The notes under the pieces: generated by a model
What the model was told of the DNA's origin: nothing
Seen by the model: only the letters and a program-made list of their open reading frames with translations
Databases searched by the model: none
Translations under genes and position numbers: made by a program
NCBI GenBank assembly: GCA_021783095.1
Contig: JAJXUG010000001.1
Span: forward strand, 119,570 to 183,569
Source: Chloroflexota bacterium
Lineage (GTDB): Bacteria; Chloroflexota; Limnocylindria; Limnocylindrales; CSP1-4
Length of the DNA stretch: 64,000 nt
Direction: 5' to 3'
In this document: piece after piece, positions 723 to 28,724 of the stretch
Position numbering within the stretch: position 1 is the stretch's first letter
How the letters are laid out: each line of letters opens with the position of its first letter

Positions 723-1724
723 ATGCCGGCCGTCAGCGTTGACGACATCACCATCCTCCCCCGCATCCCCGCCCCGGACCCGATCGCCGCGAAGCACCGG
801 GCGGTCGTCGACCTCACCACGGCCCCGTCGGGCTTCGAGGGCGACGGCTTCCCCGTCCGCCGCGCGTTCGCGGGCGCCCACCTCGAGGACCTCGACCCGT
901 TCATCCACCTCGACCAGATGGGCGAGGTCGAGTACGCGCCCGGCGAGGCGAAGGGCACGCCGTGGCACCCGCACCGCGGCTTCGAGACCGTGACCTACAT
1001 GCTCGACGGCGTGTTCGAGCACGCCGATTCCAACGGCGGCGGCGGCGTGATCACCAACGGCGACACGCAGTGGATGACCGCCGGCGCCGGGATCCTGCAC
1101 ATCGAGCGCCCGCCCGATTGGCTGGTTGCCCAGGGCGGCCTGTTCCACGGCTTCCAGTTGTGGGTCAACCTGCCGCGCGACCAGAAGCTCGCCACGCCGC
1201 GCTACCAGGACATCCGGGCCGGCGAGGTCGCCCTCGCGTCATCGCCCGACGGCGGCGCGCTCGTGCGCGTCATCGCCGGCGAGGTGGCGGGCCACAAGGG
1301 CCCGGGCTCGACCTGCACGCCCATCACCCTCGTCCACGCGACGCTCTCGCCCGGTGCCGAGCTGGTGCTGCCGTGGCGCGCCGACTTCAACGCGCTCGGC
1401 TACGTGCTCGCCGGGCAGGGCACGGCGGGAACCGAACGACGGCCGGCCGGGATGGGCCAGCTCGCGGTCTTCGGCCCCGGCAACACGCTCACCTTCGCGG
1501 CCGACGGGATCCAGGAGTCGCGCGCGCCGACGTTCGACGTCCTCATCCTGGGCGGGCGGCCGATCCGGGAGCCGATCGCATGGATGGGCCCGTTCGTGAT
1601 GAACACGCGCGAGGAGGTCCTCACGGCCTTCCGCGACTACCAGGCCGGGCGCATCGGGACGATCCCCGCGGTCCACGGCGCGCCGACGACGATCCAGACG
1701 TCGAGTCCGTCCGACCGAGCGTAG
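723..1724 (+). CDS. Pirin family protein (bicupin, quercetin 2,3-dioxygenase-like)
   Basis: ATG at 723 is preceded by caggagcg. The protein contains HPHRGFETVTYMLDG...HADSNGGGG...QWMTAGAGILHIE and a C-terminal cupin. The longer ORF from 543 is an N-terminal over-extension. Confidence 0.85.
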   Translation: MPAVSVDDITILPRIPAPDPIAAKHRAVVDLTTAPSGFEGDGFPVRRAFAGAHLEDLDPFIHLDQMGEVEYAPGEAKGTPWHPHRGFETVTYMLDGVFEHADSNGGGGVITNGDTQWMTAGAGILHIERPPDWLVAQGGLFHGFQLWVNLPRDQKLATPRYQDIRAGEVALASSPDGGALVRVIAGEVAGHKGPGSTCTPITLVHATLSPGAELVLPWRADFNALGYVLAGQGTAGTERRPAGMGQLAVFGPGNTLTFAADGIQESRAPTFDVLILGGRPIREPIAWMGPFVMNTREEVLTAFRDYQAGRIGTIPAVHGAPTTIQTSSPSDRA

Positions 1725-1771
1725 GGGCGAGGGGATCAGGGGCGCACGTGCGGCCCGGCGCGCCCGATACG

Positions 1772-3841
1772 ATGGAGGGCATGCCCACCTCGTACCCCGT
1801 GCCGCCCACCTCCGACCAGGCCGACGACTACCACGGCACCCTGATCGCGGACCCGTACCGCCCGCTCGAGGATGCCGACGCGCCGGCAACCCGGGCCTGG
1901 ATCGAGGCCGAGAACGAGCTGACCGAATCGCTGCTGGCGGCGGTCGCCGGCCGCGGGGCGATCAGGTCCCGGCTCGCGCAGCTGTGGGACGTCGCGCGCA
2001 GCGGGGTGCCCTGGCGGCGCGGCGACCGCTGGTTCCAGCTGCGCAACACGGGCCTCCAGAACCAGGACGTGCTGTGGACGTCCGACCGGCCCGGGGCCGA
2101 GGGCCGCGTCCTGCTCGACCCGAACGTGCTCAACGATGCCGGGACGACCACGCTGAGCTCGATCTCGGTCTCGGAGAGCGGACGCCTGGTCGCGATCGCG
2201 ACCTCCGAGGCGGGCTCCGACTGGCAGACCTGGCGGGTCCTCCGGGCCGACGACGGCACCGAGCTCCCCGATCGGATCCCGTGGAGCAAGTTCGCGGGGG
2301 CCGCGTGGACGCACGACGAGGCCGGGTTCGTCTACGGGCGCTTCCCGGAGCCCGCGCCGGGGGACGCCTTCGACGCGCCGAACCTCGGCATGCAGCTCCG
2401 CTACCACCGGCTCGGGTCGGACCCCGCCGATGACCCCATCGTCTACGAGCGGCCCGACCACGACGACTGGGGCTTCGAGCCCGAGGTCTCCGAGGACGGC
2501 GACCTGATGGTGATCACGGTCTGGCGCGGGACCGACCCCGAGACGCGGATCCACGTGGTCGACCTCCGAGGGTACGCGGGCGACGGTCCGCTCGAGGTGC
2601 GCCCGCTCCTCGACGCCGCGGACGCCGAGTACGAGCTCGTGGCGACCGTCGGCCGAACCCTCTACCTGCGGACGAACCTCGACGCCCCCAACCGCCGCCT
2701 CGTCGGGGTCGACGCCGACGATCCCGCCGCGGCGCTGCGCGAGGTCATCGCCGAGGGCCCGGACGCGCTCGAGCGCGTCACGCTCGTGGGCGGTCGGTTC
2801 GCCGCCGTCACCCTCCACGACGCCCACAGTCGCCTCGCCCTGTTCGAGCTCGACGGCACCCCCGTCGGCCCGGTCGAGATCCCGGGCACCGGCACGATCG
2901 ACGCAACGGCCGGCCGGCGCGGGGACGAGACGCTCTACCTCGGCCTGGACCAGTTCACCGCGCCCAAGCGGGTGCTGGCGGTGCGGATCGCCGACGGCCG
3001 CGTCGCGGTCCTCCCCGACGAGGGCCTGCCGTGGGACCCCGACGCGTTCGTCACCGAGGAGGTGTTCCCGGTGTCGGCCGACGGGACGCGCTTCCCGCTG
3101 TTCCTCGTGCGTCGCCGGGACGTCGAGCCCAACGGCGACGTGCCGACGATCCTCTACGGCTACGGCGGGTTCAGCATCGCGGTCGGGCCCCGGTTCAAGC
3201 CCGAGTGGCTCGCCTGGATGGAGCGCGGCGGGCTGCTTGCGGTCGCCTCGCTGCGCGGCGGCTCGGAGTACGGCACGGCCTGGCACGACGCCGGCCGCCT
3301 CGCCAACAAGCAGAACGTGTTCGACGACTTCGCCGCCGCCCTCCGCTGGCTCGCCGGCAGCGGCTGGACCCGGCCCGCTCGGATCGGGATCACGGGGCGC
3401 TCCAACGGCGGGCTGCTCGTGGGCGCGACGCTCACCCAGCACCCCGAGCTGCTGGGCGCGGCGGTCCCCGAGGTGGGCGTGATGGACATGCTCCGCTTCC
3501 ACCGGTTCACGATCGGCTGGGGCTGGACGAGCGACTACGGCAACCCCGACGACCCCGAGCAGTTCGCATGGGTGCTCGGGTACTCGCCGCTGCACCGCAT
3601 TCGGCCCGGCACCGCCTACCCGCCGACGCTGGTGACCACCGCCGACCACGACGACCGCGTGGTGCCCGGCCACTCGTTCAAGTTCGCCGCCGCGCTCCAG
3701 GCGGCCCAGGCGGGCGAGGCCCCGGTCCTGATCCGGGTCGACACCGACGCGGGCCACGGCGCCGGCAAGCCGGTCAGCAAGCTCATCGCGGAGCGCGCCG
3801 ACGTGCTCGCGTTCCTGGAGTCGGCGCTGGGCGAGACGTAG
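1772..3841 (+). CDS. Prolyl oligopeptidase (peptidase S9A family)
   Basis: N-terminus reads DDYHGTLIADPYRPLEDADAPATRAWIEAENELT, the hallmark of the S9A beta-propeller domain. The catalytic serine box is GITGRSNGGLLVGA, followed by C-terminal Asp and His regions. The 959-aa ORF from 962 is a frame over-extension; an alternative start is 1781 (MPTSYP). Confidence 0.85.
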   Translation: MEGMPTSYPVPPTSDQADDYHGTLIADPYRPLEDADAPATRAWIEAENELTESLLAAVAGRGAIRSRLAQLWDVARSGVPWRRGDRWFQLRNTGLQNQDVLWTSDRPGAEGRVLLDPNVLNDAGTTTLSSISVSESGRLVAIATSEAGSDWQTWRVLRADDGTELPDRIPWSKFAGAAWTHDEAGFVYGRFPEPAPGDAFDAPNLGMQLRYHRLGSDPADDPIVYERPDHDDWGFEPEVSEDGDLMVITVWRGTDPETRIHVVDLRGYAGDGPLEVRPLLDAADAEYELVATVGRTLYLRTNLDAPNRRLVGVDADDPAAALREVIAEGPDALERVTLVGGRFAAVTLHDAHSRLALFELDGTPVGPVEIPGTGTIDATAGRRGDETLYLGLDQFTAPKRVLAVRIADGRVAVLPDEGLPWDPDAFVTEEVFPVSADGTRFPLFLVRRRDVEPNGDVPTILYGYGGFSIAVGPRFKPEWLAWMERGGLLAVASLRGGSEYGTAWHDAGRLANKQNVFDDFAAALRWLAGSGWTRPARIGITGRSNGGLLVGATLTQHPELLGAAVPEVGVMDMLRFHRFTIGWGWTSDYGNPDDPEQFAWVLGYSPLHRIRPGTAYPPTLVTTADHDDRVVPGHSFKFAAALQAAQAGEAPVLIRVDTDAGHGAGKPVSKLIAERADVLAFLESALGET

Positions 3842-3973
3842 CGCCGCACGGCGTCGACACCAGCGGACCCAGCTCGCTCTTCGGGCGCTGGGCCCATCGC
3901 CGTCCGTTGGATAGCCGTCGCACGGAGGCGACAGAGCGAAGCGCCCGCGGTCGGCCAAGATCCGGCGAAGGTA

Positions 3974-3989
3974 CGCAATATATATTGCG
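3974..3989. promoter_or_regulatory. 16-bp perfect AT-rich palindrome CGCAATATATATTGCG, candidate ArsR/SmtB-type operator overlapping the -10 region
   Basis: The sequence is exactly self-complementary and sits 31 bp upstream of the ATG at 4020 of the ArsR-family gene. It is an extreme AT islet in a roughly 70% GC genome. Confidence 0.5.
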
Positions 3990-4019
3990 CACTACTCGTT
4001 GCGGATCTACCATGACCGC

Positions 4020-4610
4020 ATGAGCGAACCACGCGTCAAGCAGGTCACCGATCTGGCCGGGCTCCGGGCCCTCGGCCACCCACTCCGGCTCCGGCTCCTC
4101 GGCCTGCTTCGGGCAGGCGGCCCCGCAACGGCAACCGCGCTCGGGGACAAGGTGGGCGCCGCACCCAACGCGGTCAGCTACCACCTTCGACAACTCGCCA
4201 GGGCGGGGTTCATCGAGCCGGCCGAGACCTCCGGCGGCGACCGGCGTGAGCACGCCTGGAAGGCGAGCCACGAGACGACCTCGTGGGAGCCGTCGGGCTT
4301 CAAGGATTCGCCGGCGTCAAGCGCCGCAGCGGAACTCGTCCGTCGCCGGATCTTCGACGCCTACGACCAGGCCCTCGAGGCCTACCTCCTCGGCGAGCAC
4401 GGGGAGCCGGCATCGTGGCGGGCGGCTGCCGGGTTCGGCGACCTCGCATTCCGCGCCAGCCCGGGCGATCTCAAGGCCGTGCTGGCGGAGGTGAACGCTG
4501 TCGTCGCCCGCTCCCAGCAGCGCGCAATCGGGACCCTGGGCGATCCCGACCCCGACGCACGGACCGTCATGGTCATCTGGCACGGCTTCCCGCTGCCGGT
4601 GGACCGATGA
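4020..4610 (+). CDS. ArsR/SmtB-family winged-HTH transcriptional regulator
   Basis: MSEPRVKQVTDLAGLRALGHPLRLRLLGLLRAGGPATATALGDKVGAAPNAVSYHLRQLARAGFIE is a typical ArsR HTH. An alternative upstream ATG at 3999 would leave only 10 bp after the palindrome. The stop overlaps the next gene's ATG (ATGA). Confidence 0.7.
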   Translation: MSEPRVKQVTDLAGLRALGHPLRLRLLGLLRAGGPATATALGDKVGAAPNAVSYHLRQLARAGFIEPAETSGGDRREHAWKASHETTSWEPSGFKDSPASSAAAELVRRRIFDAYDQALEAYLLGEHGEPASWRAAAGFGDLAFRASPGDLKAVLAEVNAVVARSQQRAIGTLGDPDPDARTVMVIWHGFPLPVDR

Positions 4611-5932
4611 GCGGCCAGCCCCGTCCGGCCCTCGCCCGCCGCGTCGCGGGGCGCCTCGTCTCCCCCCTGCTCCACGAGCGGGACTTCCGGCGCTTCTGGC
4701 TCGGCCAGACCATTTCGGTGTTCGGCGACCAGGTCACCCAGCTCGGGGTCCCGCTGGTCGCGGTGCTCGTGCTGGGCGCGGACGCGACCCAGATGGGGAC
4801 CCTGCTCGCGGTGGGGCTGCTGCCGCACCTGCTGTTCTCGCTGCCGGCCGGCGTCTGGCTGGACCGGGTTCGCCATCGCCGCCGCCTGATGATCGCCGCC
4901 GACCTCGCTCGCGCGGCCTTGATCGCCAGCATCCCGGCCGCGTACGTGGCGGGCGTCCTGTCGATGGCCCAGCTCTACGTCGTCGGGTTCCTGACCGGCT
5001 CGATGGCGGTCGTGTTCGACATCTCGTGGAACACGCTGCTGGTGGCGGTGGTCCGGCGGGAGGCCTTCGTCCAGGCCAACGCGCTCTTCTCCGGCGGCCG
5101 CGCGCTCGCCTTCGTGGGCGGCCCCCCGCTGGCCGGTGTCCTGGTCCAGGTGCTCACGGCGCCGATCGCGCTGGTCGCGGACGCCCTGTCGTTCCTCGGG
5201 TCGGCGTTCTACCTCGCGCGCATCCGCGCAGCCGAGCCGCCCATCGAGATCGTGGAGGAGTCCATGCGCTCGCGGCTGTCGACCGGGCTGGTGTTCATCC
5301 TCCGCGACTCGATCATGCGCCCGATCCTGCTCTCGGTCGCGACGATCAACCTGTTCAACTTCTGCTTCCAGGCGCTCTTCATCCTGTACGTCACGGCCGG
5401 CCTCGGGGTGAGCCCGGGCGTGCTCGGCGCGGCCCTCGGCGCGGGTGCGGTCGGCGGCGTCCTCGGCGCGGTGATCGCCACCCGGGTCGGCGGCCGCCTC
5501 GGGCTGGGCGGGGCCTTCACGCTCGGCTGCGTGCTCTTCCCGGCCCCGATCATCCTCGTGCCGCTGGTCTCGGGCCCATCCGAGGCCGTCATCGCCATGC
5601 TGTTCGCGGTCGAGTTCCTGGCCGGGCTCGGCGTGCAGATCCTCGACATCAACGTGGGGGCGGTCATCGCGGCGCGGACCCCCGACGCAATCCGCTCCCG
5701 GTCCGGCGGCGCCTTCCGGTTCATCAACTACGGGATGCGGCCGGTCGGGGCGTTCCTGGGCGGGCTGCTCGGCGGGGTCATCGGAGTCCGCGAGACGCTG
5801 CTCGTCGTGACGATCGCGGCGTCCCTGGGCGTTGTGTGGCTGGTCGGGTCGCCGATCCCCGGCCTGCGCAACCTGCCCGAGGCGGCCCGGCAGGGGCCTG
5901 AGCCGGCTACCGACGCCCCGGGCTATGGCTAG
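4607..5932 (+). CDS. MFS transporter (EntS/enterobactin-exporter-like, 12 TM)
   Basis: Hydrophobic 12-helix pattern with an FRRFWLGQTISVFGDQVTQLGVPL start. It is translationally coupled to the ArsR gene through an ATGA overlap at 4607-4610. Confidence 0.8.
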   Translation: MSGQPRPALARRVAGRLVSPLLHERDFRRFWLGQTISVFGDQVTQLGVPLVAVLVLGADATQMGTLLAVGLLPHLLFSLPAGVWLDRVRHRRRLMIAADLARAALIASIPAAYVAGVLSMAQLYVVGFLTGSMAVVFDISWNTLLVAVVRREAFVQANALFSGGRALAFVGGPPLAGVLVQVLTAPIALVADALSFLGSAFYLARIRAAEPPIEIVEESMRSRLSTGLVFILRDSIMRPILLSVATINLFNFCFQALFILYVTAGLGVSPGVLGAALGAGAVGGVLGAVIATRVGGRLGLGGAFTLGCVLFPAPIILVPLVSGPSEAVIAMLFAVEFLAGLGVQILDINVGAVIAARTPDAIRSRSGGAFRFINYGMRPVGAFLGGLLGGVIGVRETLLVVTIAASLGVVWLVGSPIPGLRNLPEAARQGPEPATDAPGYG

Positions 5933-6175
5933 AGCCGTGCTTCCGGCCTGCTGCGAGTCCACGCCACGTTAGGCGTCCCGTCTCCGCCATCCAGGCAAAG
6001 GACGACTGCGCCGTCGGGTGCCGGCCGTCAGACGAGCGATCTCGAGGCCGAATCGGCTCGAATCCCCGCCAGACAGTCGCCAGCCACGCAGATGACGATT
6101 TCCCCGGTCAGGCGTAGTCGTCCTCTGACTGGCTGGCGGAGGGGCGGGGGCCGGCGGGTTGGCACCCGCGAGCGC

Positions 6176-7834
<1,659 letters not shown>

Positions 7835-26057: not shown

Positions 26058-26902
26058 GGGGCCTCCGTGGGGACTGGCGCCGGGGATGCGGTCGGCGTGG
26101 CGGGTGGTGCGGCCGCGAAGCCGCGGCTGGCGGTGAGCGCAGCGAGGCGCGCGCGGGGGAACTCGGCTTCGATCCGCAGGGGCAGCATCGCCTTGGCCGT
26201 GCGGCGGCCCTCCTTGGCCGCCACTCCTGCCTCGGCCTGCTCGCGCCCTTCGCCCGCCTTCCTCGCGGGCCCGCCGGCCAGACGCGCCATCGCGCTGCCG
26301 AGCTCGCCGTAGCCCGTCGGCCGATGCTCGAACGCCAGCCCGAGCCGGACGGCCGCCCGGCGCGCCAACTCGAGGACTTCCGGGTCGTCATGCTGCGATA
26401 GGTAGACCACGCGCTGATAGCCCGCGAAGTACACAGGCAGCAACTCCGGGTGGCGGTCGAGCCCGAGGCCGCGGACCACGAGCGCCTCGAAGCTGCGGGC
26501 CAGGAAGTCGGTCAGGTAGAAGGTCCCGGGCTCCTCGGCCGCCAGCGCGGCGAACTCGGCGAGTCCCGTGAAGGTGGCGTAGCAGTGGGCGCCCGGCAGC
26601 CGATCAGCGCCGTGCCTGGCCAGCACCGTGTCGAGCGCACCGGCCGTGCCGCAGTCGGCGTACGCCACGAACACCCGGTCGTAGCCGTCCGCGAGCTGAG
26701 CGAGCTTCGCGTCGACCGCTGGCGCAATCTGCTCCGGGCGGTTGTGGAGCTGCGCGGGCAGGCAGCGCACGTCGACGGCCCCGGCCAGCCCGTTGCGCTC
26801 GACGAGCTCGAGCAGCTCGCGGGCGAGCGCGCCGCAGCCCACGACGAGCGTCGGGGCGAGGGCTTCGGAGGACGCCGTCGGCCGGAGCCCGCGATCGGTC
26901 AT
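26054..26902 (-). CDS. DUF1638 domain protein (accessory protein recurrently linked to corrinoid methyltransferase systems)
   Basis: Start MTDRGLRP at 26902, overlapping the corrinoid-protein stop (ATGA). C-terminal Ala/Pro-rich tail. The 528-aa ORF from 27640 runs in a different frame over the corrinoid gene and is an artefact. Confidence 0.65.
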   Translation of the reverse strand: MTDRGLRPTASSEALAPTLVVGCGALARELLELVERNGLAGAVDVRCLPAQLHNRPEQIAPAVDAKLAQLADGYDRVFVAYADCGTAGALDTVLARHGADRLPGAHCYATFTGLAEFAALAAEEPGTFYLTDFLARSFEALVVRGLGLDRHPELLPVYFAGYQRVVYLSQHDDPEVLELARRAAVRLGLAFEHRPTGYGELGSAMARLAGGPARKAGEGREQAEAGVAAKEGRRTAKAMLPLRIEAEFPRARLAALTASRGFAAAPPATPTASPAPVPTEAP

Positions 26903-27576
26903 GCGACGAACTTGCGGGCCGTTTCTGCCGCGATCGCGGCGTCGCGGCAGTAGGCGTCGGCACCGACCGCCATCGCGAACTCCTCGTTGAGCGGCGCGCC
27001 GCCCACGAGGACCACGTACTTGTCGCGGATGCCGCGGTCCTTGAGCGCCTGGATCACGACCTTCATGTACGGCATCGTGGTCGTCAGCAGCGCGGACATG
27101 CCGAGGATGTCGGCCTTGTGCTCCTCGAGCGCGGCCAGGAACTTGTCGGCGTCCGTGTTGACGCCGAGGTCGACGACGTCGAAGCCGGCGCCCTCGAGCA
27201 TCATCCCGACCAGGTTCTTGCCGATGTCGTGGATGTCCCCCTTCACGGTGCCGATGACGACCTTGCCGACCGGCTTGGCGCCCGTCTCGGCGAGCAGCGG
27301 GCGGAGCACCGCCATGCCGGCCTTCATCGCGTTGGCGGCGAGCAGCACCTCGGGGACGAACAGGATCCCGTCGCGGAAGTCGACGCCGACGATGCGCATG
27401 CCCTCGACGAGCGCCTCGGCCAGCACCTTGTCCGCGCCCCAGCCTCGCCCGAGGAGGACCTTCGTGCCCTCGACCGTCTCGGGCGCGAGCCCGTCGTAAA
27501 GGTCGTCGTGCATCTGGCTGACCAGTTCCTCGTCGCTCAGCGAGGCGAGGTCGAGTTCCTGCTCGTCGGTTCCCAT
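26899..27576 (-). CDS. Cobalamin-binding corrinoid protein (MtgC/MttC-like; B12-binding cap plus Rossmann domain)
   Basis: DxHxxG motif GDIHDIGKN with downstream SALLTTT and GGA motifs. 225 aa from MGTDEQ (27576); the 323-aa ORF is over-extended. Confidence 0.85.
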   Translation of the reverse strand: MGTDEQELDLASLSDEELVSQMHDDLYDGLAPETVEGTKVLLGRGWGADKVLAEALVEGMRIVGVDFRDGILFVPEVLLAANAMKAGMAVLRPLLAETGAKPVGKVVIGTVKGDIHDIGKNLVGMMLEGAGFDVVDLGVNTDADKFLAALEEHKADILGMSALLTTTMPYMKVVIQALKDRGIRDKYVVLVGGAPLNEEFAMAVGADAYCRDAAIAAETARKFVA

Positions 27577-27946
27577 TGGCTCCTGCCGGTGACGCTGTGT
27601 AGCGGATGGCGCAACGAGTTGCGGATTGCGCAACGGACAATAGACGAGAGCCGCGGCTCTGTCCAGACGGTATCGCGCTGCGGGCGGTCGCTGGGTGCGC
27701 GAGCCGGACGATCCGGGCGTCGGTTCGATCGCGCTGGCGTCGCCGGGATCCTCCGCATCGCGCGCCGCTCCCGATCGGATCCTCCAGATCGCCTCCGGGG
27801 GGCGCTTCGCCCCGTCGGCCAGATTGGCGGGCGCCTGCTCGTGCGTGAGCCGGCCGACGCTGGCGCCCATATCGCCTGCCGGGGGCGATTTGGCGGGATT
27901 CGCTTGGCTAAGCGCCGCCGAGAGGCGAAATGGCGGGGGCGGTGCG

Positions 27947-28010
27947 GCGCGGAGCCCGCACGCGGCGCGGAGCCCGCACGCGGCGCGGAGCCCGCACGCG
28001 GCGCGGAGCC
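27947..28010. repeat. Tandem repeat, 18-bp unit GCGCGGAGCCCGCACGCG x 3.6, inside a 470-bp intergenic region
   Basis: Three perfect head-to-tail copies at 27947-27964, 27965-27982 and 27983-28000, plus a 10-nt partial fourth copy. Read directly from the sequence. Confidence 0.7.
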
Positions 28011-28046: not shown

Positions 28047-28724
28047 CTAGGCGGCGGGGACGGAGTCGCCGCCTCGGTCGGCCGCCGAGAGGCGCTCCTC
28101 CGTGTACCGGTAGTGGGCGGCGACCGCGTCCGTTGCGCGCTGCGGATCCCGGGCCCCGATGGCGTCGGCGATGTGGCGGTGGACCTCGACGGGCGGAATC
28201 CAGGCGAGCGATGACCGCGTCGCCACCGCGGTCCGCATCAGCAGGACGGTCTGGGACGCCAGCTGCTCGAAGACCGCCAGGAGGCGGCCGTTGCCGGACA
28301 GCCGGCAGTAGCTGCGGTGGAACTCCATGTCGGCGTCCCAGGCTGCGGCGAGGTCGGGGCCCCGGTAGGCGTCCTCGACCACCTCGAGGGCCGCCCTGAG
28401 GTCGGTGAGCTCCTCGTCGGTGGCGTGGGAGATCGCGAGCCGCACCGCGACCTCCTCGATCGCCCGGCGGATGACGTACACCTCGTTGAGATCGGCCTCG
28501 GTCAGGCTGCTGACGAACGTCCCGCGTCGGGGAAGGTCAACTGCGAGACCCGTGCGGGCGAGCTCGGTGAGGGCGTCCCGGATAGGCCCGCGCGAGACGC
28601 CGAATCGGTCCGCGAGCTCGGTCTCGACCAGTCTCGAGCCCGCAGGAAGGCGCCCCTCGAGAATCTCGTCGCGCAGCTGGTCCGCAACTGCCTGCCAGAG
28701 TTGCTTGTGGTCGATCGTGGCCAT
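28047..28724 (-). CDS. GntR-family transcriptional regulator (FadR subfamily with FCD effector domain)
   Basis: wHTH (LVETELADRFGVSRGPIRDALTELARTGL) plus an all-helical C-terminal FCD-like domain. Divergent from the DMGO-like gene. Confidence 0.85.
   Translation of the reverse strand: MATIDHKQLWQAVADQLRDEILEGRLPAGSRLVETELADRFGVSRGPIRDALTELARTGLAVDLPRRGTFVSSLTEADLNEVYVIRRAIEEVAVRLAISHATDEELTDLRAALEVVEDAYRGPDLAAAWDADMEFHRSYCRLSGNGRLLAVFEQLASQTVLLMRTAVATRSSLAWIPPVEVHRHIADAIGARDPQRATDAVAAHYRYTEERLSAADRGGDSVPAA

Follow-up and report, generated by a model that had tools for sequence, protein, structure and literature searches.

In the described regulator-exporter cassettes MepR-MepA, EmrR-EmrAB, QacR-QacA, and TetR-TetA, a dimeric repressor of the MarR or TetR type acts on palindromes over the promoter of an adjacent exporter and is released by the substrate. 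QacR occupies a single extended site as two dimers. Canonical ArsR/SmtB metalloregulators (SmtB, CzrA, NmtR, and ArsR) combine an ArsR-type winged helix-turn-helix (wHTH) domain (Pfam HTH_5/HTH_20; PDB 6j0e for ArsR and 2lkp for NmtR) with an autoregulated operon that contains an export gene and has one or two inverted repeats near or over its promoter. SmtB/ArsR promoters were described as having one or two 12-2-12 repeats nearby, in one case overlapping the −35 element (PMC8790569). Here, we describe a locus that appears to share these general traits in a 64-kb stretch of DNA from a Chloroflexota bacterium (contig JAJXUG010000001.1, positions 119,570 to 183,569; hereafter, the window), where a perfect 16-bp palindrome, CGCAATATATATTGCG (3974-3989), precedes a gene for an ArsR-like regulator and a coupled gene for a transporter of the major facilitator superfamily (MFS). 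The initial annotation of the window had proposed the palindrome as a candidate operator of the adjacent regulator. Comparison with orthologous loci upholds this proposal and extends it: We read the palindrome as the upstream half of a bipartite operator through which the repressor would shut off its own regulator-exporter operon, and we put the probability of this reading at about three in four.

The palindrome lies in the 178-nt gap between the end of an S9 peptidase gene (3841) and the regulator ATG (4020), with 30 nt between its last base and the start codon, i.e., at the offset of 31 bp (4020 − 3989) that was initially noted. It widens to a 22-bp near-palindrome (3971-3992) with one mismatched pair and TnCGCAA half-sites. 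Its AT-only core, AATATATATT, spans 10 nt (3977-3986) rather than the 8 nt first reported, and it contains the only run of at least 8 AT-only nucleotides in the 64-kb window, whose G+C content of 0.72 agrees with the ~70% estimated before. When we counted perfect 16-bp palindromes across the window, we found six where a first-order Markov model predicts 4.8; the other five are GC-rich and lie inside coding sequence. The perfection of the palindrome alone is thus not beyond chance, and the evidence for a function comes from comparative conservation. The 16-mer itself, with up to three mismatches allowed, matched only once in the window and not at all in 100 shuffles. Apart from the second dyad described below, a search for operator copies elsewhere in the window returned only two one-mismatch matches (10192 and 54410), which is chance level, and no paralogue of the regulator or of the MFS gene was found within the 64 kb.

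Alignment of orthologous upstream regions revealed that the operator comprises two dyads, the second of which had been overlooked when a single-dyad operator was proposed. Dyad 1 (3974-3989, no strand assigned) reads CGCAA-N6-TTGCG, spans −46 to −31 relative to the start codon, and pairs at 8 of 8 positions; dyad 2 (3988-4003, likewise without strand) reads CGCAC-N6-TTGCG (CGCACTACTCGTTGCG), spans −32 to −17, and pairs at 4 of 8 positions in the window and at 4 to 7 of 8 in the orthologs. The two dyads overlap by 2 nt, with their centers 14 bp apart, and share a junction, TTGCGCAC in the window and TTGCGCAA in the orthologs, i.e., TTGCGCA(A/C). Within one dyad, the centers of the half-sites are 11 bp apart, which is one helical turn and suits a winged-helix dimer.

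This arrangement was conserved. We identified 27 proteins that are 61 to 97% identical to the regulator, all from metagenomes or metagenome-assembled genomes, with the named ones belonging to Candidatus Limnocylindria/Limnocylindrales (Chloroflexota), and obtained the DNA of loci that add nine distinct promoter sequences to that of the window, with regulators 61 to 85% identical to the one studied here. The half-sites, with the CGCA and TTGC columns of dyad 2 among them, do not vary across the 10 orthologous promoters (the window plus nine others), and the upstream alignment together with a per-position table yielded the operator consensus (C/T)GCAAnAnnTATTGCGCAAT-N4-(G/A)TTGC(G/A/C). By contrast, positions 6, 8, and 9 of dyad 1, which form part of the AT-rich core, vary freely, and full 8/8 pairing of dyad 1 is confined to the window and its 97% identical twin (5 to 7 of 8 in the other orthologs). 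The AT-rich core and the perfect dyad, which the initial annotation had stressed, are accordingly lineage-specific, whereas the conserved part is (C/T)GCAA...TATTGCG. Scanning both strands of ~119 kb of ortholog loci and of the window, we found the pattern yGCAA-N6-TTGCv only at −46 and −32 from the regulator start codon (at −47 and −33 in one ortholog locus); in the window, the exact pattern occurs at −46 alone, and allowing one mismatch adds dyad 2. The check on orthologous regulator-MFS pairs that the initial annotation had suggested thus came out in favor of the operator, with the motif at these two positions only, in nine further distinct loci and among differing flanks. An imperfect inverted repeat (3947-3964/4002-4019; 18-nt arms, 72% complementary, inner ends GATCCG...CGGATC) flanks the whole operator in the window and is not kept in the orthologs.

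In every ortholog locus that we recovered, the regulator gene is followed by the MFS gene with a 4-nt overlap. The surrounding genes differ: An S9 peptidase gene and a phosphoglucomutase (PGM) gene flank the pair in the window clade, while toxin-antitoxin, glyoxalase, phosphodiesterase-like, GGDEF, and extracytoplasmic function (ECF) sigma factor genes are found outside it. As the flanks change while the regulator-MFS pair stays, the pair behaves as a self-contained module. Among the orthologs, the transporter is better conserved (80 to 100% identity) than the regulator (61 to 97%), whose most variable part is its C-terminal half. In five of the more distant loci (L164, L165, L166, L168, and L170), a gene for an ECF-type sigma factor with DUF6596 (Sigma70_r2 + r4_2 + PF20239) lies within ~1 to 2 kb of the pair, often accompanied by a YCII gene; this sigma factor gene is absent from the recovered flanks of the window clade. 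In locus L171 (3606-4935), the MFS gene is broken into a 207-aa fragment and a spurious minus-strand open reading frame (ORF), while it is intact in L170, which encodes an identical regulator protein (P0021), and in L163 (798-2940) two ORFs stand in place of one S9 peptidase gene. These breaks are probably frameshift errors of long-read metagenome assembly or pseudogenes.

The ortholog alignment also pointed to a promoter. A −10-like hexamer, TACCAT (4008-4013, + strand), ends 6 nt before the ATG and is matched in eight of the nine orthologs by TATCAT, TACGAT, TATATT, or TATCCT (CATGAT in L170), at a distance of 6 nt from the ATG or GTG (7 nt in one locus). Seventeen nucleotides upstream of it, within the dyad junction, lies the −35-like hexamer TTGCGC (3985-3990, + strand), so that the orthologs share the consensus TTGCGC-N17-TATCAT-N6-ATG. 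A −10 element only 6 nt before the start codon implies a leaderless mRNA, and there is neither room for a Shine-Dalgarno sequence upstream of the regulator ATG nor one present. From these sequence features, the promoter is probably TTGCGC-N17-TACCAT, with the transcript of the regulator-transporter unit starting at or next to 4020 and being leaderless. The two dyads (−46 to −17) cover the −35-like hexamer and the entire spacer but not the −10 element, at variance with the original suggestion that the operator overlaps its own −10.

The position of the dyads bears on the direction of control. Instead of repressing as two independent dimers, the adjacent regulator might act from these sites as an activator or in a dual role, or might bind both dyads as a single tetramer, an alternative that we consider unlikely although it fares best among those weighed here. 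The −35-like TTGCGC is weak (three of six matches), as is typical of activator-dependent promoters, and arrays of three to five repeats in Micromonospora-type loci (see below) suggest higher-order oligomers. Class II activator sites, however, usually end near the −35, whereas sites that cover the −35 hexamer together with the whole spacer occupy a repressor-type position, and repression is the usual mode of action of characterized ArsR-family proteins and of efflux-linked wHTH regulators.

We next consider the regulator itself, encoded at 4020-4610 on the + strand, a protein of 196 aa with an N-terminal ArsR-like wHTH domain, a C-terminal helical domain, and a conserved tail. The wHTH comprises residues ~6-89 with the recognition helix at ~49-61 (AAPNAVSYHLRQLA), and an AlphaFold2 model (mean predicted local distance difference test score, 85) places further helices beyond the wing at residues 98-128, 131-137, and 148-171, followed by the tail. 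Residues 18-66 match Pfam HTH_20 (54.6 bits; cut-off, 27) and HTH_5 (27.5 bits; cut-off, 22), and profile matches to PDB entries are confined to the wHTH, with ArsR, NmtR, and SmtB aligning over residues 12-70 (E values of 9e-8 to 2e-3); canonical ArsR/SmtB members align with the regulator over 70 to 105 residues only. The score against the NCBIfam ArsR/SmtB metalloregulator model NF033788 (42.1 bits) stays under the cut-off of 55. The former assignment to an ArsR-family repressor therefore stands for the ArsR-type wHTH and has to be qualified for the protein as a whole, which is an atypical two-domain relative of that family. There is no cysteine among the 196 residues, the canonical α5 region and site are not present, and a different helical domain stands in their place; the earlier remark that a CxC motif and an α5 metal site are missing was thus correct. 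Across the wider family, the only invariant histidines are H20 and H55, both in the wHTH.

Variation between the closest relatives is concentrated in one short segment of this gene. Over 6591 collinear bases (1020-7610), the window and a near-identical contig (L161) show no insertions or deletions and only 12 differences, nine of which fall inside an 88-bp patch at 4275-4362 (+ strand; L161:3256-3343) that corresponds to codons 86-115, from where the wing ends to where the long helix begins. Seven of the nine are nonsynonymous (T86A, K95G by two nucleotides, A99E, E105D, A114V, and Y115H) and two are synonymous, while no difference falls in the operator, the promoter, or any part of the MFS gene. 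At three of these positions, it is the window regulator that is derived (K95, A99, and E105), the other orthologs having G, E, and D there. Judging from the sequence pattern, this could be a recombination patch or the result of diversifying selection at the junction of wing and long helix.

In an ATGA at 4607-4610 (+ strand), the stop of the regulator gene and the start of the transporter gene overlap, confirming the fusion of the two genes that had been noted, and a weak Shine-Dalgarno-like GGTGGA (4598-4603, + strand) precedes the transporter start, consistent with translational coupling. The MFS gene (4607-5932, + strand) encodes a 441-aa protein of the MFS_3 (EntS-like)/DHA3-like kind. It matches Pfam MFS_1 (85.3 bits; cut-off, 33.4) and MFS_3 (PF05977, 85.1 bits; cut-off, 27; residues 22-423), gives an end-to-end alignment to the DHA3 H+ antiporter model TIGR00900 that scores 167.6 bits, under the cut-off of 319.6, and reaches 61.3 bits against the EntS equivalog, under the cut-off of 324. 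Among MFS proteins, motif A is defined as GxxxDRxxRR in the loop between transmembrane (TM) segments TM2 and TM3, and the antiporter motif C lies in TM5; the transporter carries motif A as G82VWLDRVRHRR92 and an approximate match to motif C, GGRALAFVGGPPLAGVL, at residues 163-179. A crude hydropathy scan displayed six hydrophobic hairpins and, at ~205-235, a central loop, fitting a 6+6 topology and the 12 TM segments that were predicted before. A convergent PGM gene adjoins the 3′ end of the transporter gene, which makes the regulator-transporter unit bicistronic.

What the system responds to can be approached from these protein features. The operator could be real while the effector is a metal ion, with the MFS protein exporting the metal or a metal chelate, as in the siderophore export by EntS. 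In line with this, the wHTH resembles the ArsR, NmtR, and SmtB structures, the transporter shows weak similarity to the enterobactin exporter EntS (61 bits), and His78, His84, and His188 are conserved among the orthologs. We nevertheless judge it improbable, slightly more so than control by an activator or tetramer. The C terminus that would hold the canonical α5 site is a different helical domain, the family-wide invariant H20 and H55 both belong to the DNA-binding fold, the regulator falls short of the metalloregulator cut-off, and no metal-handling genes are consistently near the pair in ortholog loci. Together, the lack of cysteine and of a family-wide conserved cluster of metal ligands argues against a sensor of thiophilic metals or of redox state. 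The likeliest effector, guessed by analogy to the MarR/TetR-pump cassettes, would be an organic pump substrate and not a thiophilic metal.

The same plan recurs in a much wider family. A profile search with the regulator returned 628 clusters (50% identity) at E ≤ 1e-30 and 2676 at E ≤ 1e-10, and nearly all of the best matches are 185 to 220 aa long and align over their full length. Their names at NCBI are generic ("winged helix-turn-helix domain-containing protein"), and in the open-access literature (subscription papers lay outside the scope), we found no characterized member of this subfamily and no description of its motifs. We sampled 172 loci, most with homologues that are 35 to 42% identical, from Micromonospora, Streptomyces, Blastococcus, Agromyces, Jiangellales, and soil metagenomes, i.e., mostly Actinomycetota, which yielded 161 nonidentical upstream regions. 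Of the 158 loci that have space for a following gene, 151 carry an MFS homologue (identified by jackhmmer) directly after the regulator and on its strand, and the regulator stop and the MFS start share a 4-nt overlap in 110 of 140 (ATGA in 63 and GTGA in 47). The presumed leaderless start recurs as well: A TAnnnT-N5-8-ATG/GTG in the regulator frame that is open to the HTH was present in 149 of the 161 upstream regions, compared to nine and one in the control frames, with a spacer between TAnnnT and the start codon of 6 nt in 114 loci and 7 nt in 31.

Repeat arrays were apparent in these upstream regions, too. The autocorrelation of bases peaked at 13 nt (0.38 versus ~0.25) and at 14, 26, and 28 nt, whereas the coding and far-upstream controls displayed a 3-nt periodicity only. 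By eye, the arrays read TTGCGCAA-N6-TTGyGCAA in Streptomyces, three to five TGTGCAyA units with a 13-bp period in Micromonospora, CACAAG...CTTGTG in Agromyces, and TTTGCAAA-N6-TTTGCAAA-N6-TTTGCr in many others. Perfect 8-mer palindromes as such are nonspecific (118 of 161 upstream regions and 93 of 161 coding controls), but TGTGCACA, TTTGCAAA, and TTGCGCAA dominate the real set. The half-site class tracks residues 47-52 (window numbering), where the recognition helix begins: TGTGCA sites coincide with T47-N48-(T/S)49-G50-A51-T52, where T47, N48, G50, and T52 are invariant in 83 of 83 proteins, TTGCAA sites with G50 and T52 in 46 of 46, and TGCGCA sites with A48 and V52 in 16 to 17 of 18 (V52 in 16 of 18). 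Such a correspondence between half-site and recognition helix is what a cognate pair of regulator and operator predicts.

These family data also speak to the identity of the binding factor. The motif might be the target of another trans-acting regulator, or might form a structural or RNA element, for instance the terminator hairpin of the upstream S9 peptidase gene, which ends at 3841, and the RNA of 3960-4019 indeed folds somewhat better than shuffled sequences (−18.7 kcal/mol, z = −2.1). We regard this as very unlikely. The orthologs keep the half-site sequence rather than the pairing, with positions 6 and 11 unpaired in most of them and no compensatory changes; the motif accompanies the regulator also where the gene upstream is replaced by toxin-antitoxin, phosphodiesterase-like, or unannotated ORFs; and distant homologues each have their own half-site class that tracks the recognition helix. 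As a separate candidate, an intrinsic terminator, which consists of a GC-rich stem-loop and a T-tract behind it, or an RNA hairpin was rejected, with modest folding, no T-tract (U-tract in RNA) after the palindrome, no terminator-like site in 3700-6300, and no covariation. That the palindrome is a functionless chance feature of the intergenic region is effectively refuted, as all orthologs conserve its half-sites at a fixed position and the ortholog loci lack them elsewhere, even though perfect 16-bp palindromes are as frequent in the window as expected.

The predicted repression by the adjacent regulator from a bipartite operator leads to the following working model. One dimer of the 196-aa protein would sit on each dyad, or a dimer of dimers would span both, and the bound dimers would occlude the −35 element and the spacer, thereby blocking RNA polymerase and silencing both the regulator's own gene and that of the coupled MFS_3/DHA3-like exporter. 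An effector would bind the C-terminal helical domain or the dimer interface, outside the wHTH, upon which the repressor would be released and export induced. The regulator would then be translated from the leaderless mRNA and the pump by coupling.

A number of observations weigh against this reading. Dyad 2 pairs poorly in the window, and the 14-bp distance between the dyad centers would place two dimers ~120° apart around the helix, such that their simultaneous occupancy is not guaranteed. The proposed hexamers match the consensus at only three of six (−35) and four of six (−10) positions, and a σ70 consensus scanner detected no promoter in 3700-6300; it missed the proposed one because its threshold requires 9 of 12 matches, and this promoter was instead derived from the ortholog consensus. 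A count of 5-N6-5 dyads with one mismatch did not set the family upstream regions apart (136 of 161, compared to ~132 for shuffles and 148 for coding controls), a measure that discriminates poorly, as dyads are spaced at 13 or 14 bp depending on the lineage and short palindromes abound in GC-rich coding DNA. Shared ancestry alone may suffice to explain the association between helix and half-site, and the window clade and the Streptomyces TGCGCA group do fall on the same side of a rough neighbor-joining tree. Last, that the transporter acts as an exporter is a guess from its family resemblance.

Within the window alone, these results amount to a routine annotation of an autoregulated repressor-exporter cassette, and their wider value lies in the family picture. 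Taken together, they lead us to suggest, tentatively and at somewhat less than even odds, a large uncharacterized two-domain ArsR-like subfamily (at least 628 clusters) whose members would load cooperatively onto two to five dyads that share half-sites, with a 13- to 14-bp period, over leaderless regulator-MFS promoters, would sense organic pump substrates through the C-terminal domain, and would fall into at least four operator classes (TTGCGCAA, TGTGCACA, TTTGCAAA, and CACAAG/CTTGTG) set by residues 47-52. If so, one genome could host several paralogous systems that the operator classes keep insulated from each other, and the patch at codons 86-115 would mark a fast-evolving region of effector specificity. 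The hundreds to thousands of regulator-MFS pairs, mostly in Actinomycetota, have a readable cis-regulatory plan of abutting dyads, a leaderless promoter, and a 4-nt overlap, with an operator class that can be read from a few residues of the recognition helix. If confirmed, this would make operators predictable in a regulator subfamily that has not been studied. Biosensor design would then gain a set of repressor/operator pairs that are probably orthogonal, and the search for the substrates of many orphan exporters in antibiotic-producing bacteria could start from here.

Elsewhere in the window, the region 27590-27650 contains GGCGCAACGAGTTGCGGATTGCGCAACGGACAATAG with CGCAA-N4-TTGCG, followed by the only exact TTGCGCAA of the window (27626). 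It lies upstream of a minus-strand gene for a corrinoid (B12-binding) protein (26899-27573) and downstream of a GntR/FCD regulator gene (28047-28724), and these operator-like half-sites, at another spacing, are probably the site of another regulator. Between the same two genes, an 18-bp sequence is repeated perfectly in tandem at 27944-28010, in 3.7 copies (GCGGCGCGGAGCCCGCAC). Upstream of the regulator, the longest ORF of the S9 prolyl oligopeptidase gene (962-3841) runs for 959 aa from a GTG at 962. In L161, the peptidase is called at 697 aa and is preceded by a Pirin gene, and on this basis the true start in the window is probably near 1748, with the ORF at 543-1724 likely being the Pirin gene.

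Compared to known systems, the kind of system found here is ordinary, while the regulator subfamily and the operator plan are undescribed as far as the open-access literature shows. The MarR/TetR cassettes employ other regulator families and divergent transcription, whereas here the regulator comes first in the same, probably leaderless transcript and is coupled to the pump. The transporter shares motif A and the motif-C-like segment with MFS_3 and with the DHA3 family (TIGR00900, TC 2.A.1.21, the Mef and Tap-type 12-TM drug:H+ antiporters), and it stays under both curated cut-offs, that of TIGR00900 and that of EntS. The C-terminal domain of the regulator may resemble that of PH1932 (PDB 1uly/2cwe) and Phr (2p4w), archaeal two-domain ArsR homologues of ~190 to 200 aa in which a C-terminal long-helix dimerization domain follows the wHTH. 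Sequence similarity to them, however, is confined to the wHTH (E values of 2e-5 and 7e-3), and only about half of the model superposes; they lack an accompanying MFS gene, and what they respond to is heat, not a known ligand. The only full-length structural relative, including the C-terminal helical domain, is Kfla_6221 of Kribbella flavida (PDB 4g6q, from structural genomics), at 15 to 18% identity and without a sequence-profile link to the regulator at E ≤ 10; we know of no function, operator, or gene context for it. ArsR/SmtB repressors act on an imperfect inverted repeat at their own promoter, from which the inducer releases them, and the conserved dyads at −46 and −32 would fit such a site. 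The canonical ArsR/SmtB proteins differ in several respects: They are ~100 to 125 aa long, compared to 196 aa here, sense through cysteine pairs or triads (α3, α3N, and α5c) or an α5 Asp/His/Glu site, neither of which this regulator has, and adopt a compact α1-α5 fold that dimerizes via α1 and α5, where the present protein has a separate C-terminal helical domain in place of α5. Their operator is a 12-2-12 inverted repeat, in contrast to the two overlapping 5-6-5 dyads, offset by 14 bp, of the locus described here.

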